Shown here one piece after another: positions 1 through 15,050 of a stretch of 15,050 bases of DNA. The stretch is from a virus. Taxonomy: Duplodnaviria > Heunggongvirae > Uroviricota > Caudoviricetes. The translations under genes were made by a program, and so were the position numbers. The stretch spans positions 1 through 15,050 of IMG/VR virus record IMGVR_UViG_2713896729_000010, one strand, 5' to 3'. The notes under the pieces are model-generated. The model did no database searches and was not told the origin of the DNA. It saw only the letters and a list, made by a program, of their open reading frames with translations. Position 1 is the stretch's first letter, and every line of letters starts with the position of its first letter.

Positions 1-482
1 TTTTTATTTCTCTTTCAGGTGAATAGATCGTTTTTACTATTTTACCCCGCACGAATCATCGTTAAAATCAGATTATAGTGTAGGAATAACTCGTTTTTTA
101 CGAGCAATTAAAGGATTTGCGCCATCAGCGGTGAGATGAGTTTTTGACGGCTGTAAGCGCTAACGGGTGACCCTAAGCCCTGATAATCATAGCTTAAGGT
201 GAGGATTTCTGAGGGATTAATTAGGAAAAGTAATAATTAATTTCTTGTCAGTCGGCGTTATTTGTTAGGACAATATTTCAAAAATAATCCAGCTTGTCGT
301 CAATAATTGCGATAAAGAGATAAATTAAAGTTAAATAATTAAATCATTAAAAAATTACGCCACAAAAATGCGAGGCGTCTTCAGGATTAGAATCGATAAA
401 ACAGAATGGGTTAAAGAGAGCGATATAATAGCGGCGGGTGCTTGAGGCTATCTGTCTCAGGCATTAGCTGAACGGCAGATAG

Positions 483-537
483 AGAAAAGCCCCGAGTGAT
501 ATTTTACTATCAACCCGAGGCCCCCTATATGCTGAAC
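483..537 (-). ncRNA. sokC: Sok-type antisense RNA (approximate placement), antitoxin of the hok/sok type I toxin-antitoxin locus
   Basis: Placed only by analogy with the known hok/sok organisation, where the antisense RNA overlaps the mok start (here 529). No promoter or terminator was verified in the sequence, and the coordinates rest on remembered E. coli K-12 positions. Confidence 0.3.
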
Positions 538-738
538 ACATGTAGAGTGCCTCTTACTGACCGTAAGGTCAAGGAGAAGAGAGCAATGAAGCAGCATAAG
601 GCGATGATTGTCGCCCTGATCGTCATCTGTATCACCGCCGTAGTGGCGGTGCTGGTAACGAGAAAAGACCTCTGTGAGGTTCACATCCGAACTGGCCAGA
701 CGGAGGTTGCTGTTTTCACGGCTTACGAATCCGAGTAA
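529..738 (+). CDS. mokC: MokC, overlapping in-frame leader ORF that regulates hokC translation
   Basis: ATG at 529 in frame with hokC and sharing its stop; translation MLNTCRVPLTDRKVKEKRAMKQHK... The track ORF 496..738 is the same frame from an upstream GTG. Confidence 0.65.
   Translation: MLNTCRVPLTDRKVKEKRAMKQHKAMIVALIVICITAVVAVLVTRKDLCEVHIRTGQTEVAVFTAYESE
586..738 (+). CDS. hokC: Hok/Gef family small membrane toxin (50 aa)
   Basis: Translation MKQHKAMIVALIVICITAVVAVLVTRKDLCEVHIRTGQTEVAVFTAYESE matches the Hok/Gef family as I recall it: single transmembrane helix followed by the conserved RKDLCEV..RTG..EVAVF..YE motif. Confidence 0.9.
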   Translation: MKQHKAMIVALIVICITAVVAVLVTRKDLCEVHIRTGQTEVAVFTAYESE

Positions 739-818
739 GAGCAACGGCGGGGAGTGATCCCATAAGCGCTAACTTAAGGGTTGTGGTATTACGCCTGATA
801 TGATTTAACGTGCCGATG

Positions 819-828
819 NNNNNNNNNN
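819..828. other. N10 run, assembly gap or contig join
   Basis: Ten consecutive N. Flanking sequences (hok locus versus phage gpW) are not collinear in any genome I know. Confidence 0.9.
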
Positions 829-1839
<1,011 letters not shown>

Positions 1840-1915
1840 AACCCTTGCTGCGTCTGGAATGTCGTTTTCCATGCTTTTGATGACCGTTCATCACCCTTCC
1901 AGTTTTTCGCGGTTT

Positions 1916-1970
1916 TGTGTATTGCAATGTGTATTGCAAATTGGCGATCGGGATGGGTGTGTATTGCAAA
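1916..1970 (+). repeat. Three direct copies of GTGTATTGCAA, candidate integrase arm-type binding sites
   Basis: tgtgtattgcaa (1916-1927), tgtgtattgcaaa (1928-1940), gtgtgtattgcaaa (1957-1970), between the core and the int start. The same motif recurs near attR. Confidence 0.6.
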
Positions 1971-1987
1971 TCTCTTGAGGGCTTTTA

Positions 1988-3229
1988 ATGGCTATTGAAA
2001 ACAAACTCAGTGACAAACTGTTAAAGAGTCTTGTCGGAAAACGGCAGGACAAACAAAAAACAATAGCGGATGGGCGCGGGTTGTCTGTGCGTGTAAGCAT
2101 GGTTGGGGGGATCAGCTTTGTTTTTTACTATCGTCTTGGTGGCAGGGAATCCCCTCCGGTATGGCTTACACTTGGTCGCTATCCTGACATGTCTCTTGCA
2201 ACGGCCAGGCGCATGCGTGATCAGTGCCGTGAATGGCTGGCTGAAAATCTGGACCCCCGCAGGCAAATAAAACTTGCTGCCGAAAAAACTATGCAACCAG
2301 TGACCGTAAGGGATGCGCTGTTTTACTGGTACGACAATCACGCCACAACAGCCAGAAAAGAGCATGAATATTTAATAAAACGATTTGAAAAGCATATCTT
2401 CCCCTATATCGGTGATATGGCTATAGAACAGTGCAAATTACACACATGGCTTACCGTCTTTGACAGGATCAAAAAAAATGCGCCTGTTATGTCTGGTGCA
2501 ATTTTTCTTGATATCAAACAGGCGTTGCGTTTTTGTCGCGTCAGGCAATACATCGCGTGCGATCCCTTTGGAGATATTAACGTAAGTTATGTCGGGCGCT
2601 CATCCGGTATAAGGGATCGCGTTCTTAATATCAATGAAACCGCTGATGTATGGTCTTATGCTTACGGTAATAATTTGCTAACTCTGTCATCAATATATAA
2701 CCGAAGAATAATGGTTATCTGCCTGGTGTTTGGTTGCCGACAGCAGGAGGCGAGGCTATCCACCTGGGACGAATGGGATTTAAAAAACTGGGTATGGACA
2801 GTCCCAAAAGAGCACAGCAAAAACAAGGAGGCTATAGTAAGGCCTGTTCCTGACGGAATAAAACAATGGATCGTTAATCTTTACGCAGAAACAAAAAATC
2901 GCGGTTATGTTGTCGGTTGTGCTTTGCAAAGGGCGACAATAACAGGGGCTGCAAACAGAATATGCAGGCGTCTTGGTCATGATACTAATGGCTTGTGGTG
3001 CATACATGATTTCAGGCGCACATTTTCCACTACGCTTAATGATATGGGGGCGGATCCTTATATTGTCGAACTTCTTTTAGGTCATAAAGTGAAAGGGGTT
3101 GCTGGTGTTTACAATAAAAGCAGGCATATAAAGAAAAAACTTGAGGTGCTTAATATGTGGGTTAATTACCTTAATACGATAGCAGGATTTAACAACAACG
3201 TTATCGAGCTTAATAAAGAGGTGGTGTGA
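1988..3229 (+). CDS. int: Tyrosine site-specific integrase, P4-like family
   Basis: 413 aa. N-terminal arm-binding-like region (GRGLSVRVSMVGGISFVFYYRLGG...YPDMSLATARRMRDQ). C-terminal catalytic motifs CRQQEA (R), HDFRRTF (HxxR) and GVYNKS (Y nucleophile). SD gaggg 6-7 nt upstream of the ATG. Confidence 0.95.
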   Translation: MAIENKLSDKLLKSLVGKRQDKQKTIADGRGLSVRVSMVGGISFVFYYRLGGRESPPVWLTLGRYPDMSLATARRMRDQCREWLAENLDPRRQIKLAAEKTMQPVTVRDALFYWYDNHATTARKEHEYLIKRFEKHIFPYIGDMAIEQCKLHTWLTVFDRIKKNAPVMSGAIFLDIKQALRFCRVRQYIACDPFGDINVSYVGRSSGIRDRVLNINETADVWSYAYGNNLLTLSSIYNRRIMVICLVFGCRQQEARLSTWDEWDLKNWVWTVPKEHSKNKEAIVRPVPDGIKQWIVNLYAETKNRGYVVGCALQRATITGAANRICRRLGHDTNGLWCIHDFRRTFSTTLNDMGADPYIVELLLGHKVKGVAGVYNKSRHIKKKLEVLNMWVNYLNTIAGFNNNVIELNKEVV

Positions 3230-3230
3230 T

Positions 3231-3488
3231 ATGGCAATTTATTCTCTTGTTGATGAAAACGATTTGCGCACAATGAAGGACATTGATCGGTTCATTCGTG
3301 AAAAAGAGTGCATAGCACTTACCACGCTGGCAAACTCAACACGCTGGAAAATGGAGCAGGCAGGTAAATTCCCGCGACGTATCAAGATCGGTGAACGTGC
3401 TGCAGGGTATCGACTTTCAGAGGTTCAGGCATGGATCCGTGGTGAGTGGCATCCTGGATGGAAACCTGGAAAAACAAAACAGCAATAA
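3231..3488 (+). CDS. alpA: AlpA-family HTH regulator / excisionase-like protein
   Basis: 85 aa. Translation ...IALTTLANSTRWKMEQAGKFPRRIKIGERAAGYRLSEVQAWIRGEW resembles the AlpA/Vis helix-turn-helix. Start is 1 nt after the int stop, so likely translationally coupled. Confidence 0.85.
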   Translation: MAIYSLVDENDLRTMKDIDRFIREKECIALTTLANSTRWKMEQAGKFPRRIKIGERAAGYRLSEVQAWIRGEWHPGWKPGKTKQQ

Positions 3489-3501
3489 CCAGTAAATAAT
3501 G

Positions 3502-3524
3502 CCCCTCATCACGAGGGGTTTTTT
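3502..3524 (+). terminator. Rho-independent terminator after alpA
   Basis: CCCCTC-ATCAC-GAGGGG stem-loop followed by TTTTTT. Confidence 0.75.
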
Positions 3525-3544
3525 GTCTATAAGGTAAAAACGCG

Positions 3545-4123
3545 ATGAATAAAAATATTGCCGTGACGGGCAAGGGGTACGCTCGTCCAGTGAAAAAATT
3601 CTGCGATATTCGTGATCTCGTCGTTCTGCGCTTTGATAGTGTGAACGTTCGTGTGGTGTATCTGAACGGCGATCCGTGGTTTGTTGCAAAAGATGTTTGT
3701 GCTGCGCTGGAACTAACCAATTCGCGTACGGCGTTGCAGATGCTTGATGATGATGAAAAGGGAGTAAATTTAACTTACACCCCAGGAGGAAATCAGAATA
3801 TGAGAATTATCTCTGAGTCAGGTTTCTACAAACTAATAGCCCGCAGCCGCAAAGCAACGACGCCTGGCACATTTGCTCATCGTTTCAGTAACTGGGTATT
3901 CAGAAATGTGATACCAGGTATCAGAAAAACGGGGACTTATGGTATCCCGTGGGGTGCATTACAGGATTTTTCCCGCCGTAAAGAGCAATATCAAATAAGT
4001 GCCAGCGAGAAGGGGAGGGAGCTACAGGCATGTAAGCGCAAAAAGCGTGAGCTGGAGGAAGAAGAAAAAACGCTGATACGTGAATATCAGCCTGAGTTTT
4101 ACTTTGGTAACCGCATTCAGTGA
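3545..4123 (+). CDS. Bro-N domain protein (antirepressor-like), with a charged coiled-coil-like C-terminus
   Basis: 192 aa. N-terminal region VRVVYLNGDPWFVAKDVCAALELTNSRTALQMLDDDEKGV...RIISESGFYKLIARSRK fits the Bro-N fold as I recall it. C-terminus is K/E-rich (KRKKRELEEEEKTL). Confidence 0.75.
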   Translation: MNKNIAVTGKGYARPVKKFCDIRDLVVLRFDSVNVRVVYLNGDPWFVAKDVCAALELTNSRTALQMLDDDEKGVNLTYTPGGNQNMRIISESGFYKLIARSRKATTPGTFAHRFSNWVFRNVIPGIRKTGTYGIPWGALQDFSRRKEQYQISASEKGRELQACKRKKRELEEEEKTLIREYQPEFYFGNRIQ

Positions 4124-4132
4124 CAAAACAAA

Positions 4133-4153
4133 GGCGACCGCAAAAGGGTCGCC
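4133..4153 (-). terminator. Rho-independent terminator for the leftward regulator operon
   Basis: GGCGACC-gcaaaag-GGTCGCC hairpin. The T-run (tttgttttgtca) lies on the minus-strand 3' side, so it terminates leftward transcription; there is no T-run on the plus side. Confidence 0.65.
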
Positions 4154-4219
4154 AGTGGGAACAAGGGAAAACAAAAGCATCACCAACAATGCCACATTTG
4201 CGGCTGGTGGGCAATGTGA

Positions 4220-4399
4220 TCAGTCAGATTTGGTTCGTTCCAAGGTTTGCAACGAGAGCTTTTTCCTGTGCTCTTTAAGGAATTTCTCAAGAGCAAACGA
4301 ACAAGGTGCGAATCTTTCTGATTCATGTTCATGCGCTATATTTTTGCGTCGTCTCTTACGAGTTGGTGATGGTGTTTTGGTTGATTCTGTGTCGCTCAT
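4220..4399 (-). CDS. Small basic hypothetical protein (59 aa), second gene of the leftward operon
   Basis: Not in the supplied track (below its size cut-off). Hand translation MSDTESTKTPSPTRKRRRKNIAHEHESERFAPCSFALEKFLKEHRKKLSLQTLERTKSD. SD AGGA 7 nt upstream of the ATG. Lies between the 101-aa gene and the minus-strand terminator. Confidence 0.4.
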   Translation of the reverse strand: MSDTESTKTPSPTRKRRRKNIAHEHESERFAPCSFALEKFLKEHRKKLSLQTLERTKSD

Positions 4400-4456
4400 G
4401 GTGCTGTCCTGTAAAGCAATGCGCCTGCGTTCCTCAAACTATGGCGCTGATATTGG

Positions 4457-4762
4457 CTATTCATGCTCTTTGACCTTGCGTCGCTGGAGTTCTTCACGCG
4501 CGACGGTGACGAGTTGCCCGATCTCCTCGGCTGCTTTGATGCCGATTTGTTCGACCTTAGCCAGGGCATCCAGTGACGACACAAGGGGATTTTCTCCGCT
4601 GCCTTCTGCTTGGCGGCGGGCTATTTCTCCGCGCATGGCGGTTACGATAAATCCGGCATTGCTTTCACCGTCCAGCTTAACGGATTCCATCCCTTGCATA
4701 ACATCTAGTGGGACTCTGACAGTTGTCAGTTGTGATTTTGCGTTTTTGTTAGCCGTTGCCAT
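4457..4762 (-). CDS. Hypothetical protein (101 aa), candidate island repressor/regulator by position
   Basis: Strong SD AGGAG 8 nt upstream of the ATG. Divergent from the rightward early operon across a palindromic operator. No family recognised from sequence. Confidence 0.7.
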   Translation of the reverse strand: MATANKNAKSQLTTVRVPLDVMQGMESVKLDGESNAGFIVTAMRGEIARRQAEGSGENPLVSSLDALAKVEQIGIKAAEEIGQLVTVAREELQRRKVKEHE

Positions 4763-4823
4763 TTCTGAAACTCCTAATCATCGGTGTGTTTCAGTATACA
4801 CAAAAAAAGAAATACAAAAAGCC

Positions 4824-4861
4824 TTGACGTGTGTTTCATGCGCTCATAACATGAAACACAC
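4824..4861 (+). promoter_or_regulatory. Candidate sigma-70 promoter of the rightward early operon overlapped by a perfect 12-bp inverted-repeat operator
   Basis: -35 TTGACG (4824-4829), 17-bp spacer, -10 TAACAT (4847-4852). Inverted repeat GTGTGTTTCATG (4829-4840) / CATGAAACACAC (4850-4861) with 9-bp spacer. Extra half-site GTGTGTTTCAG at 4784-4794. Confidence 0.55.
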
Positions 4862-4952
4862 CGAAAGGATTGTTGAAATACAAAGAGCAACGCCCCGCAG
4901 TGCTGGGAACACATACGGGGCGTCTAACCAACAACGTAAACTAGGAGCCGTT

Positions 4953-5150
4953 ATGGTTGCTGTAAATCATATACCACACCTTGTACACACACAAACGGCC
5001 TTTGTGTGGCGTTTTCTGGCACTGAGTGCCGGAGAATCTCAAATCATCCACGTAACCGCCTGGACGGAACGCGAAGCGCGTAGCCGTTGCCCGTCCGGTT
5101 GTGTTGCTGTATTCGCTGCAAAAATCCGCCAGGGAGTGAGTCATGCTTAA
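4953..5150 (+). CDS. Hypothetical small protein (65 aa), first gene of the rightward early operon
   Basis: SD AGGAG (4944-4948) 4 nt before the ATG. Translation MVAVNHIPHLVHTQTAFVWRFLALSAGESQIIHVTAWTEREARSRCPSGCVAVFAAKIRQGVSHA. This is the C-terminal part of the track's 4080..5150 ORF, which I reject as a whole. Confidence 0.55.
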   Translation: MVAVNHIPHLVHTQTAFVWRFLALSAGESQIIHVTAWTEREARSRCPSGCVAVFAAKIRQGVSHA

Positions 5151-5328
5151 AACCTTCCGTGTATTTGCCCGAGCTGTTAACCCAATAGGCCACACAATTG
5201 GTATCGCTCAGAATGTGAAGGCTGTTAATGTTCAGACGGCTATTGCTGCGGTGAGAAGCGAATCATCAGAATATGGCTTATCACAAGTCATTATTTCAGC
5301 AGTGTATGAATTAAAAGAGGTGCATTAA
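5143..5328 (+). CDS. Hypothetical small protein (61 aa)
   Basis: Start overlaps the upstream stop (ATGCTTAA); SD gggag upstream. Confidence 0.5.
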   Translation: MLKTFRVFARAVNPIGHTIGIAQNVKAVNVQTAIAAVRSESSEYGLSQVIISAVYELKEVH

Positions 5329-5519
5329 TGCAGGAAATTACATTACACGAAGCCGCTGAACGTGCGCACCAGACAGAAATTATTTGCCGCCTTCTTGAGG
5401 TATACCCGAACAAAATTACAGATGCTGATATATCCGCACTGGCGAGCCTACTGGCGCGTCTTTCGGGAAGTGTCGCTAGTTTTTTGATTGAGGAAGAAAG
5501 TAAGCTGGTGGGGGATTAA
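5328..5519 (+). CDS. Hypothetical small acidic protein (63 aa)
   Basis: TAATG stop/start overlap with the upstream gene; SD aagagg upstream. Confidence 0.55.
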   Translation: MQEITLHEAAERAHQTEIICRLLEVYPNKITDADISALASLLARLSGSVASFLIEEESKLVGD

Positions 5520-5741
5520 ATGAATACAGAACGGGAAGTCTTTTTTAAATTGTTAGCATGTGCAGAAAGTTCATTAACTTTAAATAATTCAGCAAAAGCA
5601 ATATTAAATATGTGGCTTGATTGCATAAATGACAATGAAGATGCAAATATTGCTTATGGCCTGTTGTCACTTATTGATGAATCAGCAGAAAAACTCAATG
5701 ACGCAATAAATAGTGCCCTGCTATCAAATAAGTCGAGTTAA
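5520..5741 (+). CDS. Hypothetical small acidic protein (73 aa) in an AT-rich segment
   Basis: TAAATG overlap with the upstream gene. Local base composition is visibly AT-richer than its neighbours, suggesting a recently acquired cargo gene. Confidence 0.5.
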   Translation: MNTEREVFFKLLACAESSLTLNNSAKAILNMWLDCINDNEDANIAYGLLSLIDESAEKLNDAINSALLSNKSS

Positions 5742-5758
5742 GTCGAGGAATAAATAAT

Positions 5759-6058
5759 ATGGAAATGAAAAATTCTGGCTTTATTGCCAGCGGCCCCGCT
5801 CGACCTGAATTTATGAACGGCGATATTTACCGCGATAAATACGGCGGCACGGTAACGATTAAAGGCGTGGCAGAACGGCGCATCACTTACCGCCGTGAGG
5901 GGTATAGCTATGACTGCGTGATGCCTGTTTATCAGTTCCGGCGTGATTTTCCCCTGGTATATGCCGCACCCCGCAGTAAGCCCATCAGCAGGGAAAAAGC
6001 GTGGGGAAATATCCAGAAAATGAAAACCATGATTAACGGATTCAGAGGTAAAAAATGA
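5759..6058 (+). CDS. Hypothetical protein (99 aa), translationally coupled to the helicase gene
   Basis: SD gagga upstream. Stop overlaps the helicase start (ATGA at 6055-6058). Confidence 0.6.
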   Translation: MEMKNSGFIASGPARPEFMNGDIYRDKYGGTVTIKGVAERRITYRREGYSYDCVMPVYQFRRDFPLVYAAPRSKPISREKAWGNIQKMKTMINGFRGKK

Positions 6059-7809
6059 AACTGGCACCGAACGTAAAACAGCAGTCACGCGGCATAAAAC
6101 ACAAAGGAACAGAAGTCATTATTTTTGCGGGTAGTGATGCCTGGGCACACGCGAAACAATGGCAGGAACATGATGCGCGTATGGCCGGAGATAATGAGCC
6201 TCCTGTGTGGCTTGGGGAGCAGCAGCTATCCGAACTGGATAATCTGCAAATTGTGCCGGAAGGCCGAAAATCAGCACGCATATACAGGGCCGGATATCTT
6301 GCGCCTGTAATGATAAAGGCGATTGGTCAGAAGCTGGCGGCAGCAGGCGTACAGGATGCAAATTTTTATCCTGAGGGTATGCACGGCCAGGAGGTGCAGA
6401 ACTGGCGCGAATATCTGGCCCGTGAACGCCAGAATCTTTCTGATGGTCTGGTCATTGAGCTTCCGGTAAAGCAAAAGGCGCAACTTTCGCAGATGGCGGA
6501 CAGTGAGCGCGCGCAGTTGCTTGCCGATCGCTTTGATGGCGTTTGCGTACATCCTGAAAGTGAAATCGTTCACGTATGGCGCGGCGGGGTATGGTGTCCG
6601 GTCAGCACAATGGAACTTAGCCGCGAAATGGTGGCGATCTATTCAGAGCACAGGGCCACTTTCAGCAAGCGCGTAATCAATAACGCCGTGGAAGCGTTAA
6701 AAGTTATTGCCGAACCAATGGGCGAGCCGTCTGGCGATTTGCTGCCGTTCGCCAATGGTGCGCTTGACCTGAAAACGGGGGAATTTTCCCCGCACACGCC
6801 GGAGAACTGGATCACCACGCACAACGGCATTGAGTACACGCCACCAGCACCAGGGGAGAACATCCGCGATAACGCGCCAAACTTTCATAAATGGCTTGAG
6901 CACGCAGCCGGAAAAGACCCGCGCAAGATGATGCGTATATGTGCCGCGCTGTACATGATTATGGCGAACCGGTACGACTGGCAGATGTTTATTGAGGCCA
7001 CCGGAGACGGCGGGAGCGGTAAAAGTACATTCACACACATAGCCAGCCTTCTGGCAGGGAAACAGAACACGGTAAGCGCTGAAATGACATCGCTTGATGA
7101 TGCTGGTGGACGTGCGCAGGTTGTCGGGAGTCGTCTTATCGTCCTGGCTGACCAGCCGAAATATACAGGCGAAGGAACGGGCATCAAGAAAATCACAGGC
7201 GGCGACCCCGTGGAAATTAACCCGAAATATGAAAAGCGTTTCACGGCGGTAATCAGGGCGGTGGTGCTGGCGACCAACAACAACCCGATGATATTCACCG
7301 AACGGGCCGGAGGTGTGGCACGTCGTCGCGTGATTTTCCGTTTCGACAATATCGTCAGTGAGGCCGAAAAAGACAGGGAGCTACCGGAAAAGATTGCGGC
7401 TGAAATCCCCGTTATTATCCGCCGATTGCTGGCGAACTTTACCGACCCTGAGAAGGCACGGGCTTTACTACTGGAACAGCGTGACGGTGATGAAGCACTG
7501 GCAATAAAGCAACAGACGGATCCGGTTATTGAGTTTTGCCAGTTCCTGAATTTTCTGGAGGAAGCGCGCGGCCTGATGATGGGTGGCGGTGGTGATTCAG
7601 TGAAGTACACGACCAGGAACAGCCTTTACCGCGTCTATCTGGCGTTTATGGCATACGCGGGCAGGAGCAAACCGCTAAACGTGGCTGAGTTCAGCAAGGC
7701 CATGAAGCCAGCGGCGAAAGTTTACGGGCATGAATATATTACGCGAAAAGTTAAGGGAGTAACGCAGACCAACGCAATTACAACAGACGATTGCGACGCG
7801 TTTTTATAA
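6055..7809 (+). CDS. Replication initiator / SF3 helicase (D5_N-like domain plus NTPase, resembling the P4 alpha C-terminal half); no clear primase motif seen in the N-terminus
   Basis: 584 aa. Walker A GDGGSGKST and Walker B-like LIVLADQ. The conserved region before the NTPase resembles the D5_N / P4-family C-terminal domain. Iteron origin immediately downstream. Confidence 0.88.
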   Translation: MKLAPNVKQQSRGIKHKGTEVIIFAGSDAWAHAKQWQEHDARMAGDNEPPVWLGEQQLSELDNLQIVPEGRKSARIYRAGYLAPVMIKAIGQKLAAAGVQDANFYPEGMHGQEVQNWREYLARERQNLSDGLVIELPVKQKAQLSQMADSERAQLLADRFDGVCVHPESEIVHVWRGGVWCPVSTMELSREMVAIYSEHRATFSKRVINNAVEALKVIAEPMGEPSGDLLPFANGALDLKTGEFSPHTPENWITTHNGIEYTPPAPGENIRDNAPNFHKWLEHAAGKDPRKMMRICAALYMIMANRYDWQMFIEATGDGGSGKSTFTHIASLLAGKQNTVSAEMTSLDDAGGRAQVVGSRLIVLADQPKYTGEGTGIKKITGGDPVEINPKYEKRFTAVIRAVVLATNNNPMIFTERAGGVARRRVIFRFDNIVSEAEKDRELPEKIAAEIPVIIRRLLANFTDPEKARALLLEQRDGDEALAIKQQTDPVIEFCQFLNFLEEARGLMMGGGGDSVKYTTRNSLYRVYLAFMAYAGRSKPLNVAEFSKAMKPAAKVYGHEYITRKVKGVTQTNAITTDDCDAFL

Positions 7810-7824
7810 TTTTTTGTAAAAGCC

Positions 7825-8042
7825 ATCTACCCCATCTACCTGAACAAAATAAACGCATATTATTCAACATGATAAGTGGGTATAGGGCTAGGTAGAAGGC
7901 TAATAAAAGCTCTCTACCTCTTCTACCTGATTTTATCAGTTTCAGGTAGCAGGGTAGACGGCAGGTAGAGGAGTCAAAAAGCTATCTACCCGCTGAAAGC
8001 CGCGCCATTACTGACATGATGAGCATTCGGGTAGATGGGTAG
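7825..8042. repeat. Iteron-type replication origin: at least 11 copies of GGTAG / CTACC arranged as inverted clusters
   Basis: ccatctaccccatctacc (7823-7840); ggtag at 7891, 7945, 7953, 7964, 8030, 8038; ctacc at 7914, 7923, 7986. Terminal clusters are mutual reverse complements (catctacc / ggtagatg). Lies directly after the initiator gene. Confidence 0.8.
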
Positions 8043-8157
8043 AGGGGGGGAGGCACAACTAAAAACTTTTTAAACGAGGGGGGGGTGAAAATAAATGCGC
8101 ATACATAAAAATCACTTAATAAACATGCCAGCCGAAAACATGAATCAGGGGCGACAA

Positions 8158-8409
8158 ATGACCAAAATTCGCAGAGACAGAACACAGGCAAAATATAAAG
8201 CGTTAGACATGACAGAGCTTTCCTTAAAGGTGGCAATCAAAGCGATAGACCACCACACACGGGCAGGATACGCGAAGGAACATCCCGACCTGATAAGCGC
8301 ATTCATGACCACAGCAGCGGCAAACTTTGCCACGCTGACAGAACGGGAGATTGCCGAAGCGGAACAGGTGACAACCATCAATGTTAAAACCGGAGAGCAG
8401 ACAGCATGA
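8158..8409 (+). CDS. Hypothetical protein (84 aa; start uncertain, alternative starts at 8139 or 8095)
   Basis: SD agggg 6 nt before ATG 8158. Stop overlaps the SSB-like gene start (ATGA at 8406). Confidence 0.55.
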   Translation: MTKIRRDRTQAKYKALDMTELSLKVAIKAIDHHTRAGYAKEHPDLISAFMTTAAANFATLTEREIAEAEQVTTINVKTGEQTA

Positions 8410-8855
8410 CAGCACAGATAGCGGCTTACGGGCGGCTGGTGGCTGACCCGCAGTTAAAGACCACCAGCAAAGGGACACAAATGGCGATGGCGAGTATGGC
8501 GGTTCCCCTGCCGTGCAGCCAGGCAGATGACGGAACGGCGACGATGTGGTTATCCGTCCTGGCGTTTGGCAGACAGGCCGACGCACTGGCAAAACACCAC
8601 AAAGGCGAACTGGTGAGCGTGGCGGGTAACATGCAGGTAAGCCAGTGGACAGGCCAGAACGGCGAAACGCGGCGGGGCTGGCAGGTTATCGCAGACAGCG
8701 TAATCAGTGCGCGAACGGCGCGACCGGGCGGCAAAAAAGGCCAACAGGGGCAGGCTACTGACGAACTGAACAGAGCAAAACAACAGGCAGATCAGCAAGG
8801 AAGCCAGCCACCAGTGGGAGATAATGAGCAATGGGGAGATGATATCCCGTTTTAA
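8406..8855 (+). CDS. ssb: Single-stranded DNA-binding protein homologue with SSB-like acidic C-terminal tip
   Basis: 149 aa. OB-fold-like N-terminus (GRLVADPQLKTTSKGTQMAMASMAV...WLSVLAFGRQADALAKHHKGELVSVAGNMQVSQW), Gly/Gln-rich linker, and C-terminus ...WGDDIPF resembling the DDDIPF tip of bacterial SSB. Confidence 0.8.
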   Translation: MTAQIAAYGRLVADPQLKTTSKGTQMAMASMAVPLPCSQADDGTATMWLSVLAFGRQADALAKHHKGELVSVAGNMQVSQWTGQNGETRRGWQVIADSVISARTARPGGKKGQQGQATDELNRAKQQADQQGSQPPVGDNEQWGDDIPF

Positions 8856-8873
8856 ATATTGCCAATAAAAAAG

Positions 8874-8897
8874 GCCGGAAAAAATAAATTTTCCGGC
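8874..8897 (+). other. Perfect hairpin between the replication and capsid modules
   Basis: GCCGGAAAA-aataaa-TTTTCCGGC, 9-bp stem. No T-run after it, so not a canonical terminator on the plus strand. Confidence 0.5.
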
Positions 8898-9071
8898 ATG
8901 CTACATAAATCCCGACCAAAGGGAGTGAAGATATTAACACTAATTGTCCGCACTGAAGTTGTCACCCCAAAACTTTATACAACATTGCACTCGGTTGCAT
9001 GTGTTCGCATGACAAATATCGGTGGTAGCATATATCCACAATTATTTTTAATGAATGCAAAGAGGATGCGT

Positions 9072-10112
9072 ATGGTTGATTTATATTCGCCTACTCAGCT
9101 TGTACAGGTGGTTAATGCTGTAGATGTACAAAAACAACTAAATGCGTTGTTTACCAGTTTGTTTTTTACTCGCTCGGTAATGTTTGAATCGCGCGATATT
9201 ATTCTTGATACAATCGACGATCCAAATATCCCAATTGCAGCGTTTTGTTCTCCTATGGTGGGTAGTAAAGTTTCACGTGACGAAGGGTACGAATCAAAAA
9301 CAATTCGTCCAGGCTATATGAAGCCGAAAAGCAGCATTGATCCAAATAAGTTAGCTGTGCGCCCTGCTGGTGTATCACCTGAGCAATACAATGCTTTTGG
9401 GGCACGTAATATTAAAGTTAAACAGGCGATTGTAAATCAGGCTAAAGCTATTCGTGCACGTATTGAATGGCTTGCTGTTCAGGCAATCACAACGGGGAAA
9501 AATATCATTGAGGGCGATGGTATTGAACGTTATGAGCTGGACTGGAATATAAAACCACAAAATATCATCACTCAGTCTGGCGGTACTGAGTGGTCAGGTA
9601 AGGATAAAGAAACTTTTGATCCAAATGATGATATTGAGAGCTACGCAGAATTTAGTGAGGGCGTCACTAATATCATCATTATGGGTGGTAATGTATGGAA
9701 GAAATACCGTTCATTCAGAGCGATAAAAGAGGCTTTGGATACCCGTCGTGGTTCTAATTCCGAACTGGAAACGGCCCTTAAAGACCTTGGTGATTCGGTG
9801 AGTTTTAAAGGGTATATGGGCGATGTTGCGATTGTTGTTTACAGCGGGCGTTATACCGACGAGGACGGAACAGAAAAACATTTCCTTGATCCTGATTTGA
9901 TGGTGCTTGGCAATACGGCTCTTCAGGGGATTGTCGCCTATGGCGGTATTCAGGATCCGGAGCTAATCCGAATGGGGCTGACTAAAGCCGAACTTGCACC
10001 GAAAAACTATATTGTGCCTGGTGATCCGGCTATTGAATATGTGCAGACACATTCAGCACCACAGCCAATACCGGCCCGCATCAATCGTTTTGTTACCGTT
10101 CGCATTGGCTAA
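9072..10112 (+). CDS. Major capsid protein, homologue of lambda gpE
   Basis: 346 aa from ATG 9072 (SD aagagg 8 nt upstream). Collinear similarity to lambda E as I recall it: N-terminus MVDLYSPTQL versus MSMYTTAQL; NIITQSGGTEWSGKDKETFDPNDDIESYA versus NITQSGGTEWSKRDKSTYDPTDDIEAYA; LDTRRGSNSELETALKDLG...GDVAIVVYSG nearly identical. The track ORF starts at an upstream TTG (8859), which I reject. Confidence 0.9.
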   Translation: MVDLYSPTQLVQVVNAVDVQKQLNALFTSLFFTRSVMFESRDIILDTIDDPNIPIAAFCSPMVGSKVSRDEGYESKTIRPGYMKPKSSIDPNKLAVRPAGVSPEQYNAFGARNIKVKQAIVNQAKAIRARIEWLAVQAITTGKNIIEGDGIERYELDWNIKPQNIITQSGGTEWSGKDKETFDPNDDIESYAEFSEGVTNIIIMGGNVWKKYRSFRAIKEALDTRRGSNSELETALKDLGDSVSFKGYMGDVAIVVYSGRYTDEDGTEKHFLDPDLMVLGNTALQGIVAYGGIQDPELIRMGLTKAELAPKNYIVPGDPAIEYVQTHSAPQPIPARINRFVTVRIG

Positions 10113-10121
10113 GGGGGAGCA

Positions 10122-10463
10122 ATGGCTACTCATTACACTGAACTCATGGCTGGCACTGAAGCACTGGTGACTACGCTGGGGATATTTTCAGCTAATAAAG
10201 GGGTAATTCCTGCATTTACGCCACTGATGCAGGAAGATGCAACAGGTGCACTGGTGGTATGGGATGGTTCGAGCGTAGGTAAAGCGGTTTATGTTTCCGC
10301 TGTACAAATCGACACAGCGAAAAAAACACAGGCACAGGTTTATAAGACAGGTGTTTTAAATGTTGATGCTCTGAACTGGCCTGAGTCTGTAAAAGAACTG
10401 TCGGCAAAGGTTGCCGCGTTTGTTGGCTCAGGTATTTCTGTTCAGCCGCTGGCTCGTGTGTAA
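10122..10463 (+). CDS. Head decoration protein, homologue of lambda gpD
   Basis: 113 aa, SD gggggag. Similar to lambda D as I recall it: TPLM..D....LVVWDG...YK.G......WPE......AF.G..IS. Confidence 0.85.
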   Translation: MATHYTELMAGTEALVTTLGIFSANKGVIPAFTPLMQEDATGALVVWDGSSVGKAVYVSAVQIDTAKKTQAQVYKTGVLNVDALNWPESVKELSAKVAAFVGSGISVQPLARV

Positions 10464-10474
10464 AGGGGGATACA

Positions 10475-10858
10475 ATGCAGAATCATTACAATGACCTTAA
10501 GCCAATTGCCGAAATGATGTATCCGGATCCAGCAGTAGAGGAATTAAAGGCTATTGCTGACAAAATGCGTTTAAGTGAACGCCTTGTTGATATGAATCAG
10601 GTGATGGAACTTACTACCCTTAGCCGTCGCACATTGCTAAACCTTGAGGCTAGTGGAGAGTTCCCGGAGCGTGTGCAGGTTACGGAAGGGCGTAAGGCCT
10701 GGTATTTAAGTGAAGTGATCGACTGGATAAACAATATTCCTCGATCTTCTGAATATTGCCGCGTACCTGTCCCAAAAAAGCCAGATGCGGCGCTATGCCT
10801 CAAGATTGAGCGTGTACGTCGCAATGCACGGGATGGTCGCTATAAGTTGATTGGTTGA
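10475..10858 (+). CDS. Second AlpA-family HTH protein (127 aa, with an N-terminal extension), immediately upstream of cos
   Basis: SD aaggggga. Translation ...MELTTLSRRTLLNLEASGEFPERVQVTEGRKAWYLSEVIDWIN is an AlpA-like helix-turn-helix. Confidence 0.7.
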   Translation: MQNHYNDLKPIAEMMYPDPAVEELKAIADKMRLSERLVDMNQVMELTTLSRRTLLNLEASGEFPERVQVTEGRKAWYLSEVIDWINNIPRSSEYCRVPVPKKPDAALCLKIERVRRNARDGRYKLIG

Positions 10859-10884
10859 TGAAATTAGGGCCCGTTCTGGCTGGC

Positions 10885-10948
10885 GGGTCCTTTCCGGCGA
10901 TCCGGTAGGCTACGGGGCGGCGACCTCGCGGGTTTTCGCTATTTATGA
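10885..10948 (+). other. cos site: lambda-type cosN (12-nt cohesive-end sequence GGGCGGCGACCT at 10915-10926) with lambda-like flanks
   Basis: gggtcctttccggcgatccggtaggctacg|GGGCGGCGACCT|cgcgggttttcgctatttatga agrees almost base for base with the lambda cos junction as I recall it. Sequence downstream (10949-11059), where cosB would be, is unlike lambda. Confidence 0.85.
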
Positions 10949-11059
10949 GCCTTTTTCGGGTGCTGGTGGTGGTTTTGTTGTTCGCTCTATCTCTATGAAT
11001 AAAAAGGAAAAGATAAAGCCAATACACCAACCTGAAACATTACTTAAGTGGGGATATTG

Positions 11060-11530
11060 ATGAAATCGCACCTGATGAACAAAAAAAACATGGCGCAAAG
11101 CTGCCGTGTAAGTGCGACAGCGTTCGACAAGTGGGGAGTGACTCCCGTTGAACGTAAAGGCCGCGAGGCGTTTTATGATGTTGCCAGCGTAATAGACAAT
11201 CGGGTTAGCAATGCAATTAACCAGATTACAGACGACAAAGGCGAGATTGATGATGATGAACTCCTACGAGTCAGGATCAGATTGCTGACAGCACAGGCAG
11301 AGGCGCAGGAGCTTAAAAACGAGCGCGAACGCGGCGACGTTATTGATACAGCGTTTTGTATATACGTGCTTTCAAAATTGGCGAGTCAGATTTCTTCAAT
11401 CATGGACAGCCTGCCGCTTGCCATGACAAGGAAGTTTCCCGACATGAAGCCGTCTATGCTGGATGGACTGAAAAAGAAGTTATCAGAGCCTGTAACGCAT
11501 GCGCAAAACTTGACGAAAACATACCGCTGA
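11060..11530 (+). CDS. Terminase small subunit, homologue of lambda Nu1; the C-terminal Nu1-like segment continues in the -1 frame to 11601
   Basis: N-terminal ..NKKNMAQSCRVSATAFDKWGV aligns with the Nu1 N-terminus (NKKQLADIFGASIRTIQNWQEQG). Central block LTAQAEAQELKNERERGDVIDTAFCIYVLSKLASQISSIMDSLPLAMTRKFP is nearly collinear with Nu1 (LTRAQADAQELKNARDSAEVVETAFCTFVLSRIAGEIASILDGLPLSVQRRFP). Start could also be 11075 or 11090. Confidence 0.85.
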   Translation: MKSHLMNKKNMAQSCRVSATAFDKWGVTPVERKGREAFYDVASVIDNRVSNAINQITDDKGEIDDDELLRVRIRLLTAQAEAQELKNERERGDVIDTAFCIYVLSKLASQISSIMDSLPLAMTRKFPDMKPSMLDGLKKKLSEPVTHAQNLTKTYR

Positions 11531-11612
11531 TGCTGTCCGATTATCTGATGGAAACTGCCGGAAACGTACCGGATAAGTTGCAGCCGAATAAAGATAAGTA
11601 ACGTAGTACGCT

Positions 11613-11894
11613 ATGACTGAATCCGAAATACTGCGATTAATCCGCCGTGCTTGTGGAATCAGCAAGCAGCATGACGAACAGGCCACGCAGCCGGACAGCG
11701 TGACCGCAGATAATTATGTGCGTGTAGTGGCTGAGGTGATGCGCCGTGACGGTATTGAGCTTAACGGCGTGGATATGCGCAACATACGAACAAGAGTCCT
11801 TGAGTTGCTGGCATATCGTCGCCGTTCTCAACAACGGAGGGAGAGCGCGAAAAATACTTACCAGTGGAAGAAGCCGGAACGATTGCGGCGGTAA
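11613..11894 (+). CDS. Hypothetical basic protein (93 aa) downstream of the small terminase gene
   Basis: ORF with Arg-rich C-terminus (RRRSQQRRESAKNTYQWKKPERLRR). Weak SD and no recognisable family. Confidence 0.45.
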   Translation: MTESEILRLIRRACGISKQHDEQATQPDSVTADNYVRVVAEVMRRDGIELNGVDMRNIRTRVLELLAYRRRSQQRRESAKNTYQWKKPERLRR

Positions 11895-12146
11895 CTTGCT
11901 GATATTCCCGATAACGCAAAATTGCGCTGGCTGACTTGTTGCATTGCAAAAAGTTAAGCAGGAAGGCACGGCCTGTAAGATGGGATGCAGTAAGTAGTTC
12001 AAGGCTACCTTGTGCTGGCACGCACAGTTAAGCCGTCGGTGCTGGATATCCCCCACTGGGGGAAAAGCTGGCTACATCCCTCACATCTGAGGACTGATAA
12101 CGCGACATTGCGCTGGCTGGCAAAGTGCAAAATTGCACGATGGCCT

Positions 12147-12290
12147 AACCCATTGATTATTTCGAAAACCTGCAATGCAGGAAATCGGGGAAGTAAGCCT
12201 AAGCTATTGATTGTTTCGAAAACCCCCATTGGGGGATGTCGGGAAAGTAAGACTAACCCATTGATTCTTCCACAATCCTCAATTTGAGGA
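12147..12290. repeat. Tandem ~54-bp repeat, 2.7 copies, each with a different 13-bp palindrome
   Basis: Conserved unit (C/G)C(C/T)ATTGATT.TT.C.A.AA.CC followed by cctgcaAtgcagg (12169-12181), cccccaTTggggg (12223-12235) and cctcaaTttgagg (12277-12289). Confidence 0.75.
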
Positions 12291-12608
12291 GGCCGGAACG
12301 TCTACATAGCTGCATCGCCGTAATGATGATTCAGCCCACCAGCCAAATCAGCACAGCAACGACAGAATAGCCCGACACAGAAAAACCACGAATATGGGGT
12401 TTTTGTTATGACATGGTCATGATGACCACTCATACAAAACAGGTAAAGCCCACCAGCCTGATTAAAGGTTAACCGGAAAAAAGCCAGGTATCCAATCTCG
12501 ATATGGGGATCCCTATATCGACATTAACGCCCACTAAAACTGTGCATATATGCATAGAAAAAGCATCCACCAGCTTTATGACGGATGCCGCTCATCTTAT
12601 AAATAATC

Positions 12609-12630
12609 GTGTATTGCAGTGTGTATTGCG
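12609..12630 (+). repeat. Two further direct copies of the GTGTATTGC(A/G) arm-type motif near attR
   Basis: gtgtattgca (12609-12618) and gtgtattgcg (12621-12630), about 75-95 bp from the right core, same orientation as the three copies near attL. Confidence 0.6.
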
Positions 12631-12703
12631 ACTCCTTTAAACGATAGGTCTGAGCATTCGTAATGTACTGTTTTTAAATTTTATTTTTTCCTGTCTTTTC
12701 ATA

Positions 12704-12716
12704 AAGGCGATGTATG
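12704..12716. repeat. attR core (right copy of the 13-bp direct repeat)
   Basis: AAGGCGATGTATG; phage-identical sequence continues rightward (gtatgccgccaccattgag). Confidence 0.8.
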
Positions 12717-12933
12717 CCGCCACCATTGAGAGTGAGCTGGATACGCAGTCAGCGATGGATTTTATTCTGGGCGCGAACAGTCAGGAGCAGCGGGAAAGGC
12801 TGACCGGCTGGATTGGTGAAATTGCCGCGTATTACGCCGCAGCGCCGGTCCGGCTGGGAGGCGCAAAAGTACCGCACCTGATGCCGGGGGACTCACTGAA
12901 CCTGCAGACGGCTCAGGACACGGATAACGGCTA
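12704..12933 (+). CDS. B: lambda-type portal protein B, continuation after the island (truncated at the N10 gap)
   Basis: In frame from the core: KAMYAATIESELDTQSAMDFILGANSQEQRERLTGWIGEIAAYYAAAPVRLGGAKVPHLMPGDSLNLQTAQDTDNG, matching the region of lambda B that follows ...QSAIVKA. Confidence 0.9.
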
Positions 12934-12943
12934 NNNNNNNNNN
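12934..12943. other. N10 run, assembly gap or contig join
   Basis: Ten N; flanks are portal gene versus a glutamate decarboxylase fragment. Confidence 0.9.
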
Positions 12944-13063
12944 ATCGGCCTGGAATTTATCCAGCGCATCGTGCAGCGGTTGTGGGAACTCATAGTTACC
13001 AGTGTAGGTCACGCCGAAAGTCGGCACCACGCCGATGGTGTTTTCGTCACAGGCTTCAATCAT
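12944..13063 (-). CDS. Internal 40-codon fragment of glutamate decarboxylase (GadA/GadB-like), isolated between two N10 runs
   Basis: Minus-strand translation [40 protein letters not shown] matches an internal segment of E. coli Gad as I recall it. Confidence 0.6.
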
Positions 13064-13073
13064 NNNNNNNNNN
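13064..13073. other. N10 run, assembly gap or contig join
   Basis: Ten N. Confidence 0.9.
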
Positions 13074-13673
<600 letters not shown>

Positions 13674-13683
13674 NNNNNNNNNN
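13674..13683. other. N10 run, assembly gap or contig join
   Basis: Ten N; the J frame does not continue across it. Confidence 0.9.
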
Positions 13684-15050
13684 ATAACGCGTCCGCAGTG
13701 GCACAGAACACGGCAGCCGCAAAGAAGTCAGCCAGCGATGCCGGCACATCTGCCCGTGAGGCGGCAACCCATGCAACCGATGCTGCAGGCTCAGCACGTG
13801 CCGCCAGCACGTCAGCCGGACAGGCTGCATCATCTGCTCAGTCAGCATCTTCCAGCGCAGGAACGGCATCAACAAAGGCCACTGAAGCATTAAAAAGTGC
13901 TGCCGCTGCAGAGTCCTCAAAAAGCGCGGCAGCCACCAGTGCCGGTGCGGCGAAAACGTCAGAAACGAATGCCGCAGCATCACAACTATCAGCAGCCACT
14001 TCTGCATCCACCGCGACCACGAAGGCGTCAGAAGCTGCCACCTCAGCCCGGGATGCGGCGGCCTCAAAAGAGGCAGCGAAATCATCAGAAACGAACGCAT
14101 CATCAAGTGCCAGTAGTGCAGCTTCCTCGGCAACGGCGGCAGGAAATTCCGCGAAGGCCGCAAAAACGTCTGAGACGAATGCGGATAACAGCGCACAGGC
14201 GGCAGCAGACTCACAAACTGCATCGGCAAACTCCGCGACAGCCGCCAAAAAATCAGAAACCAACGCGAAAAATAGCGAGGCAGCAGCAAAGAGCAGCGAA
14301 ACAAACGCTAAAGCCAGCGAAACTAATGCTAAATCCAGTGAAACAAACGCGGCGAAATCTGCGGCGGACGCACTTAATTATCGCAACCATGCTCAGGGTA
14401 TTGTTGGTGCTAACATCGGTTTGGGATCATCACCGCGCAATTGTCCTGATATTTCCGGTGATCCATCCGGTTATATTGGCTTTATGCGCATTTTTGCTTC
14501 CGCAACAGGTTTTCCGTCTATTGCATCAGGCGAAGGTAATCTTACTGGTTTTATTAGTCAGGTAGATGGAACACCAGCGTATACAGGTGTATTTCAGGGA
14601 TGGACTACTCGCTCGCTTTATACCTATCGCTGGAGTCCGACAATAGGCCCGCAATGGACACGCCACGCTCGCAAAAATGAAGTGGACCGTCTTGACCAAT
14701 TGAATAGCGAAACATGGTTATATAACCATGATAAATCCATGCGCCTGGGTTTAACCGCCTCATCATGGGGTTGTTACAGCGATACACAAAAAAAATGGAT
14801 ACCGCTTGATGTTTCTCATGGTGGCACTGGCGCGGCAACTATTGATGGTGCCAGAACTAATCTTGGATTAGGCAGGGATAACAGCCCTCAGCTTAATAGT
14901 CTATTTCTCGATAGGACTAGTGATTCTACTGGCGCATACACTACTGGCGGGATGCTCCATACGAGACTGTTAGCAAATGATAACACTGTGCGCCTTGCCG
15001 CTGATATGTATGTTCAGACTTTTCCAAATGAGCAAGGTCGATTAACAATA
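13684..15050 (+). CDS. stf: Side tail fiber protein (lambda Stf family), partial at both ends, with an Ala/Ser-rich SETNA repeat region
   Basis: Open frame (codons from 13686) with no stop to the window end. Repeats AKTSETNAAAS, AKSSETNASSS, AKTSETNADNS, KKSETNAKNS, KSSETNAKASETNAKSSETNAAKS, then a globular region (..NYRNHAQGIVGANIGLGSSPRNCPDISGDPSGYIGF...). Not in the track because it lacks a start and stop inside the window. Confidence 0.85.

Follow-up and report, generated by a model that had tools for sequence, protein, structure and literature searches.

A doubled repeat in both attachment arms of a portal-inserted phage satellite as the probable arm-type site of its integrase

The locus described here raises the question of which protein recognizes a short motif that is repeated near both ends of an integrated island. 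The window, meaning the whole stretch of DNA analysed, comprises 15,050 nucleotides of a virus of the Caudoviricetes (IMG/VR record IMGVR_UViG_2713896729_000010, positions 1 to 15,050). The original prediction proposed five direct repeats, three between the left core and the integrase gene (int) and two inside the right core, as arm-type sites for the N-terminal domain of the integrase. The 9-mer GTGTATTGC occurs exactly five times, always on the + strand, and no further exact copy is present in the 15,050 bases, in agreement with the single orientation and the confinement to the island ends that had been claimed. An exact-match scan with the 10-mer GTGTATTGCA found four copies, all on the + strand. 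On the int side (P' arm), half-site 1 (1917-1926) and half-site 2 (1929-1938) form a doublet, the second half lying 12 bp downstream of the first, and a lone fifth half-site (1959-1968) follows 30 bp past half-site 2, which places it 28 bp upstream of the int start codon. On the far side (P arm), half-site 1 (12609-12618) is again GTGTATTGCA, and half-site 2 (12621-12630, + strand), 12 bp downstream, reads GTGTATTGCG and matches the 10-mer at 9 of 10 positions. Counted from start to start, the int-side copies are 12 and 30 bp apart and the far-side pair 12 bp. The five predicted repeats thus stand for the 9-mer, but only four of the five do so for the full 10-mer, and the predicted span of 1916-1970 is right in position but not in its start base, which is 1917. 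Tandem Repeats Finder reported a 12-bp unit, TGTGTATTGCAA, in two copies at 1916-1939. The 10-mer was observed four times versus 0.04 expected, and 0 of 200 shuffles reached four copies.

The repeats lie within an island of about 10.9 kb (approximately 1788-12711) that splits the lambda-like portal gene of a helper prophage. The 5' part of this gene (the gpB cognate, 958-1792, + strand) is cut by the island, and its frame runs into island DNA until a stop at 1839. The shared core, AAGGCGAT[T/G]TATG, is found at 1780-1792 as the attL copy AAGGCGATtTATG and at 12704-12716 as the attR copy AAGGCGATgTATG, both on the + strand, and the 8-bp identity block AAGGCGAT holds the presumed crossover. The left junction reads ...GTG AAGGCGAT T TATG tct and the right junction ...ttt CAT AAAGGCGAT G TATG ccg. 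The attR copy is followed by the 3' part of the portal gene, with a translation (MYAATIESELD...) that continues the portal protein. Unbroken 'phage portal protein' genes from about 3,100 E. coli genomes align to the window only as far as 1792. With both core copies in place and the alignments of intact portal genes ending there, the assigned att boundaries hold. Joining of the two ends would give an attP core with the dyad CATAAA-GGCGA-TTTATG, an inverted pair as expected for core-type sites. This dyad (CATAAA/TTTATG) has no sequence relation to GTGTATTGC. Copies of the island that are at least 97% identical are found in approximately 64 of 5,426 complete E. coli genomes.

The main island genes are all on one strand. 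The first of them, int (1988-3229, + strand), encodes a tyrosine integrase with N-terminal, central, and catalytic domains (Pfam PF13356, E 3e-17; PF00589, E 1.7e-14; PF22022), and it is adjoined by a gene for an AlpA-family protein, presumably an excisionase or regulator (3231-3488, + strand; PF05930, E 5.4e-14). Pfam also identified a Bro-N protein (3545-4123), a D5-type primase (D5_N, 6055-7809), an SSB (8406-8855), a lambda E-type capsid protein (8859-10112), a D-type decoration protein (10122-10463), a second AlpA (10475-10858), and a Nu1-like small terminase (11048-11530). This gene order, with int-alpA, a Bro-N zone, primase and SSB, and a late zone with captured capsid genes, matches that of a PICI. 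Judged from the split portal ORF, the identity block 'aaggcgat', the gene order, and doublets at fixed distances, the island belongs to the helper-embedded PICIs (HE-PICIs), site group B:Phage_portal_2:241. By pairwise identity only, its integrase is 54% identical to the integrase of capsid-gene (11capE-type) islands and 69-88% identical to those of other portal-inserted islands. Relatives in other genera split portal, capsid, Clp-protease, and terminase genes.

Several minor features of the window were also recorded. The capsid ORF as called (8859-10112) begins at TTG and the Phage_cap_E match starts only at residue 83, so that the true start is probably an internal ATG near 9060; the capsid genes of relatives encode 346-348 aa. 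Runs of ten N at 819-828, 12934-12943, 13064-13073, and 13674-13683 lie in the prophage flanks and fragment the portal 3' ORF and neighbouring ORFs. At 4784-4883, words resembling GTGTGTTTC and TTGTATTTC are clustered on both strands, between a leftward ORF of 101 aa (4457-4762) and the rightward gene block. This cluster may be a regulatory switch region of the island.

HE-PICIs have been described as satellites inserted in the late genes of helper prophages at 14 sites (Tommasini, Mageeney and Williams 2023, NAR Genom Bioinform 5:lqad036; PMC10111431). The supplement of that study contains E. coli islands of 11 kb in the group B_Phage_portal_2_241 with the identity block 'aaggcgat', such as Eco14781.11.B_Phage_portal_2_241 (PMC10111431). 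A doubled motif, tgTGTATTGCantgTGTATTGCa, was reported there to occur twice in each attP, in one orientation, at distances from the centre of 81 +/- 2 bp upstream and 132 +/- 2 bp downstream, and integrase arm domains, AlpA, or an unknown protein that binds DNA were proposed as candidate binders (PMC10111431). In the window, 132 bp separate the start of the int-side doublet from the centre of AAGGCGAT, and the far-side doublet ends approximately 78 bp from that centre, in agreement with the published -81/+132 within the stated tolerance. Measured from the right core, the far-side copies lie 74-95 bp inside, where about 80 bp had been predicted. The published islands and the present one share the motif sequence, the 12-bp doubling, the co-orientation, the positions, the island type, the site group, and the integrase-arm hypothesis. 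The motif and the arm-site hypothesis are therefore already known since 2023, and for the motif as given our analysis is an independent rediscovery with very little that is new. In the literature searched, no later paper testing binding to the motif was found. The published description has four half-sites and does not mention a fifth, whereas the window has a lone fifth copy 30 bp further on. It regards the motif as unique to HE-PICIs, whereas we found the architecture to be common to hpt-site, fis-site, and other clades with variant half-sites. It also leaves the choice between integrase, AlpA, and another protein open, whereas AlpA is disfavoured here. What is new is thus the fifth site in B:241, the family-wide doublet architecture, and the tracking of the half-site with the integrase N-domain over AlpA. 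These additions are useful leads and no surprises.

The integrase itself carries a domain suited to binding arm sites. PF13356 (Arm-DNA-bind_3) covers residues 7-94 with 63 bits against a cutoff of 27 (E 3e-17), and the catalytic residues R251, K278, H340, R343, H366, and Y375 are invariant in an alignment of ten sequences. Sequence relatives of the N-domain in the PDB are 3JU0 and 3JTZ/3RMP (E 9e-7 and 3e-6), which belong to P4/CP4-57-type integrases. Their N-terminal domain is homologous to that of the window integrase by sequence, but the structures are without DNA, and in the material searched no arm-site recognition code is known for them. Between the window and related islands, the N-domain (residues 1-95) is 62-69% identical, compared to 39-54% for the core-binding and catalytic domains. 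Within the N-domain, the strands GLSVRVS, SFVFFYRL, and PVWLTLG are nearly constant among HE-type islands of the same motif. A clean code based on a single N-domain residue was not found across the motif classes; an Erwinia island (L136), for example, has the TGTATTGC motif but carries S where most members of the class have F or Y.

Relatives of the island were gathered both via the integrase and via the motif. The original prediction had proposed a check of conservation in such relatives, and the repeats are kept in position, spacing, and orientation across genera. Three int-side copies at spacings of 12 and 30 are retained in Edwardsiella tarda (integrase 88% identical), Serratia (77%), and a metagenome contig (69%), all of them portal-inserted islands, whereas the 20 bp that separate copies 2 and 3 have diverged. 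In a comparison of four genera, E. coli included, no non-core block of either arm is invariant apart from the repeats. An alignment of the far arm from islands at three target sites (two portal sites and the capsid gene) has a mean column identity of 60%, and the doublet holds 20 of its 29 invariant columns. Moreover, the motif is unchanged in islands of capsid, Clp-protease, and terminase genes, with integrases that are 48-55% identical. Constancy across integrases down to about 48% identity and at differing targets indicates that the motif is independent of core specificity. Of 26 HE-type loci with sufficient flanking sequence, 17 have another doublet in the same orientation 9.7-11.5 kb downstream.

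A chance or compositional origin of the repeats might be suggested by the shortness of the motif, and a relaxed 16-base doublet pattern also matches unrelated tandem repeats in viral contigs. Of its 135 hits there, 45 are int-side and 25 are far-side HE-PICI ends, and many of the 65 unclassified ones are unrelated 12-bp tandem repeats; only the full consensus is diagnostic. Nevertheless, 70 of the 135 hits fall at such ends, none of the shuffles reproduced the copy number, and position, spacing, and orientation are conserved across genera. The conservation refutes a chance origin, which we regard as scarcely credible. The original prediction had treated frequent occurrence of the motif elsewhere in the genome as evidence against it. 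This is a weak refutation, because any 10-mer is expected several times in 5 Mb, and it is doublets at fixed positions that matter.

The lone fifth copy deserves separate consideration. A copy 30 bp after the int-side doublet is present in all B:241 relatives examined (integrase 69-100% identical) and absent at that place in the other site groups examined. The predicted asymmetry of three plus two copies is therefore correct for this window but not as a general pattern, the family having two plus two, with one doublet per arm. In the other groups, the doublet lies at -35/-23 from the int start codon with nothing after it, and in some of these groups a copy with one mismatch, which may or may not matter, is found 17, 24, or 41 bp upstream. 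In B:241, the doublet is still at +132 from the core, the int start is 38 bp further away, and the lone copy is at -28, where the other groups have the proximal half-site. All groups thus retain a half-site at 20-45 bp upstream of the int start, a pattern that would suggest selection for an integrase site adjoining int. A decayed element in Serratia quinivorans (L002:8968-11504) retains a truncated portal gene, the three int-side repeats, int, and alpA, and adjoins unrelated chromosomal genes (MFS transporter, type VI secretion). The int-side module can therefore outlast the loss of the remaining island and the helper.

Doublets of the same design were also found in islands with other insertion sites. 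The hpt-site island L134 of E. coli (integrase 46% identical) has GGTGTATCACTC twice, at a spacing of 12, in both arms (19179-19202 and 34579-34598; half-site TGTATCAC). One pair starts 144 bp after the core, 31-43 bp before int, and the other ends approximately 70 bp before the other core copy. The fis-site island L135 of E. coli has CTGTATAAACAT twice in both arms at corresponding places (17883-18065 and 1930-2100, minus strand; half-site TGTATAAAC). Uniqueness to HE-PICIs is accordingly true of the motif sequence but untrue of the architecture. Both islands are non-embedded, capsid-forming satellites, and their AlpA proteins are 98% identical to each other. To extend the comparison, 80 further loci (L136-L215) were collected by an integrase alignment scan with one genome per species. 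A doublet with 12-bp spacing 20-55 bp before int was found in 61 of the 80; a few loci have a spacing of 10-11 bp and about a dozen are without a doublet. The half-sites fall into the classes TGTATTGC, TGTATCAC, TGTATCAA, TGTATAAAC, TGGGGTAA/C, GTGTAGTC, GTGCAGTC, GTGTAGTT, GGGGTACAT, and a GTGTAC type. Outside the HE-PICI type, the second-arm doublet was confirmed in a few loci, most islands exceeding the 10-kb flank. Three tandem copies occur in L152, L180, and L194. In the distant GTGTAC-type clade (e.g., L209), an 11-bp doublet is followed by a lone third site about 27 bp on, which echoes the two-plus-one layout of the window.

The most direct competitor of the integrase for these sites is the AlpA protein encoded beside int, which could bind the repeats as an excisionase (directionality factor), as an activator of int, or as both. 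Its gene directly follows int in every HE-type island, the int-side sites are located immediately ahead of int, and AlpA is among the published candidate binders, its relatives being excisionases and possible activators of the int promoter (PMC10111431). The doublet can in addition be read as the inverted repeat TTGCAAT-n4-ATTGCAA, which would suit a dimeric helix-turn-helix protein. This inverted-repeat reading was rejected, as the conserved block is the direct 8-mer TGTATTGC, variants such as GTGTATTGCG and TTGTATTGCT break the palindrome, and the half-sites of other clades are non-palindromic. The sites also occupy both arms at fixed distances from the core. Furthermore, the identical motif occurs with at least seven versions of the AlpA recognition helix (ANSTRWK, GRRHRSL, PKSTRAF, GASTRHY, SQAGLYR, GRNHRYY, and SRKIRAG), and AlpA is as little as 35% identical among HE-type islands of the same motif. 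The site therefore does not follow the AlpA recognition region, as the site of a directionality factor would.

Pairwise statistics were used to compare the two proteins as predictors of the half-site. Whole-protein identity was indecisive as a discriminator between integrase and AlpA, and per-domain and pairwise comparison was needed. Across 98 distinct loci, pairs were scored in ten motif classes, the GTGTAC type being an eleventh label that is based on a loose pattern and has no AlpA data; the AUC for 'same motif' among pairs was 0.946 for the integrase N-domain versus 0.790 for AlpA. Pairs with different motifs reach an identity of 85% in the N-domain (one-base motif variants only) versus 98% in AlpA, and pairs with the same motif fall to 51% and 35%, respectively, so that the ranges of N-domain identity overlap (same motif down to 51%, different motif up to 85%). 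The pairs in which AlpA is 98% identical yet the half-sites differ are hpt versus fis (TGTATCAC vs TGTATAAAC) and a Xenorhabdus pair (TGTATAAAC vs TGGGGTAA). The co-variation is partly phylogenetic, because int, alpA, and the att arms are inherited together. The argument about the binder is correlative and rests on a handful of natural recombinants, and it points to a half-site that tracks the integrase N-domain and not AlpA. On this comparative evidence, the question of integrase, AlpA, or another protein in PMC10111431 is narrowed to the integrase N-domain, and binding by AlpA appears quite unlikely.

A third possibility is that another protein, such as a host nucleoid or bending protein or a further satellite or helper factor, binds the repeats for architecture or regulation. 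An unknown DNA-binding protein was kept possible in the published account (PMC10111431), and a search for the IHF consensus with up to one mismatch found no site in 1793-1916 or 12631-12703. With no IHF site between the arms and the core, the DNA bending of the proposed complex lacks an explanation, and some bending factor is missing from the scheme. On the other hand, TGTATTGC, TGTATCAC, and TGTATAAAC all occur within E. coli, so that a host factor cannot set a clade-specific sequence. In the Serratia remnant, only int and alpA accompany the three int-side copies; no right end could be located for it, and its remaining genes do not resemble those of an island. As the motif also tracks the integrase N-domain, we consider such a protein an unlikely owner of the sites. 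The DNA from the attL core to the doublet contains a perfect inverted repeat, TGATGA-n4-TCATCA (1878-1893). The block GATGA..GTTCAT.A is invariant in an attL alignment of four genera (E. coli, Edwardsiella, Serratia, metagenome) while its flanks diverge, and the palindrome does not stand out in other site groups. We regard it as a candidate accessory-factor site.

Two characterized systems offer a guide to how such sites may work. In phage lambda, the P' arm, which is the one nearer int, has three arm sites and the P arm has two, a distribution also seen in the window; different subsets of the lambda sites are used for integration and excision. Lambda and the window have in common a heterobivalent tyrosine integrase with a small N-domain, repeated sites in both arms far from the core, and five sites in all. 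The window differs in its N-domain, which is of the Arm-DNA-bind_3 / DUF4102 type, in sites that are all co-oriented in strict 12-bp doublets, and in that no consensus sites for IHF, Xis, or Fis were seen from the arms to the core; moreover, its five-site layout is confined to its own subgroup, the relatives having four. The five arm-type sites of lambda are bound by the N-domain of Int (PMC4880445). In prophage KplE1 (CPS-53), the arm sites of IntS overlap the intS promoter and IntS represses its own gene (PMC2951348). The order of core, arm sites, and int is the same as in the window, with the attL arm sites just upstream of int. However, KplE1 is a tRNA-inserted prophage in which a sigma70 promoter has been mapped in attL, whereas no such promoter was detected in the window, and its directionality factor TorI and AlpA are of separate families.

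These precedents also bear on whether the int-side repeats serve only to control int transcription, with the far pair as a leftover duplication without a role in recombination. In every group, the int start codon is preceded by the int-side copies at 20-70 bp, and regulation of int by such sites has the KplE1 precedent (PMC2951348). No sigma70-like promoter was found in 1750-2050, around the int-side copies, and a search for a terminator around these sites found none. Within the far arm, which is otherwise 60% identical, only the doublet is invariant as a block, and it keeps a fixed distance from the core across targets; roles in regulation and recombination are in any case not exclusive. A purely regulatory function is thus very unlikely. 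With no sigma70-like promoter near the sites, autoregulation by the integrase is itself speculative. Late transcription of the helper has been proposed to read into the satellite (PMC10111431), and the lack of a visible promoter at int fits this read-through. It is more likely that int is read from the helper late transcript.

Taken together, the five GTGTATTGC copies are most likely arm-type sites that the island's own tyrosine integrase binds through its N-terminal domain (Arm-DNA-bind_3), as originally predicted, and this is the best-supported reading. It draws on the enrichment of the motif, the footprint, the arm-binding domain, the co-variation with the N-domain, the published geometry, and the lambda and KplE1 precedents. 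The integrase has its catalytic residues and its N-terminal arm-binding domain, and the sites are conserved in position in both arms and are not core-like. In the excised circle, attP would carry a co-oriented doublet approximately 87-99 bp to one side of the core dyad and a second doublet approximately 133-145 bp on the other side, with the lone extra site of B:241 at about +175. Each of four integrase protomers would contact one arm half-site through the N-domain and one core site through the C-terminal domains. The arms would fold back on the core, and the complex would cut and rejoin within AAGGCGAT, leading to insertion into, or precise removal from, the helper portal gene. By analogy with KplE1 IntS, integrase on the int-side sites probably damps its own expression. 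The lone fifth site may be an operator-proximal or alternative site, comparable to the arm-site subsets of lambda. We infer the stoichiometry, the binding, the autoregulation, and the role of the fifth site in this scheme.

A broader reading would join the window with the other clades. All Arm-DNA-bind_3 integrases of enterobacterial satellites would share one arm plan, with a co-oriented 12-bp doublet per arm and the int-side doublet 20-55 bp before int. A few residues in the beta-sheet of the N-domain would determine the half-site (TGTATTGC, TGTATCAC, TGTATCAA, TGTATAAAC, TGGGGTAA, GTGTAGTC, GGGGTACAT, and others), and this would constitute a readable, swappable code that does not depend on core specificity. 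The fifth site of the portal subgroup would be an operator that couples the integrase level to helper late transcription. We hold this combined proposal only tentatively, at somewhat less than an even chance. If the code linking N-domain and half-site is true, it could be used to predict att arms in enterobacterial satellites and to design orthogonal integrase/attP pairs. The natural hpt and fis pairs, with near-identical AlpA but different integrases and half-sites, represent ready-made material for swaps.

The non-coding right end of the island contains further repeats outside the arms. The only perfect IHF matches are within a 54-bp tandem repeat at 12143-12266 (2.3 copies, 80% match), at 12146, 12200, and 12254 on the minus strand, and each unit carries a short hairpin-like palindrome. 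This repeat could function in packaging (cos) or in the control of replication. In addition, 12438-12532 is 80-94% similar to unannotated DNA in approximately 1,100 other E. coli genomes and has within it a pair of 16-bp palindromes (12494-12525). This stretch may be a cos region common with lambdoid helpers, and the HE-PICI study places cos at this end of the island (PMC10111431).
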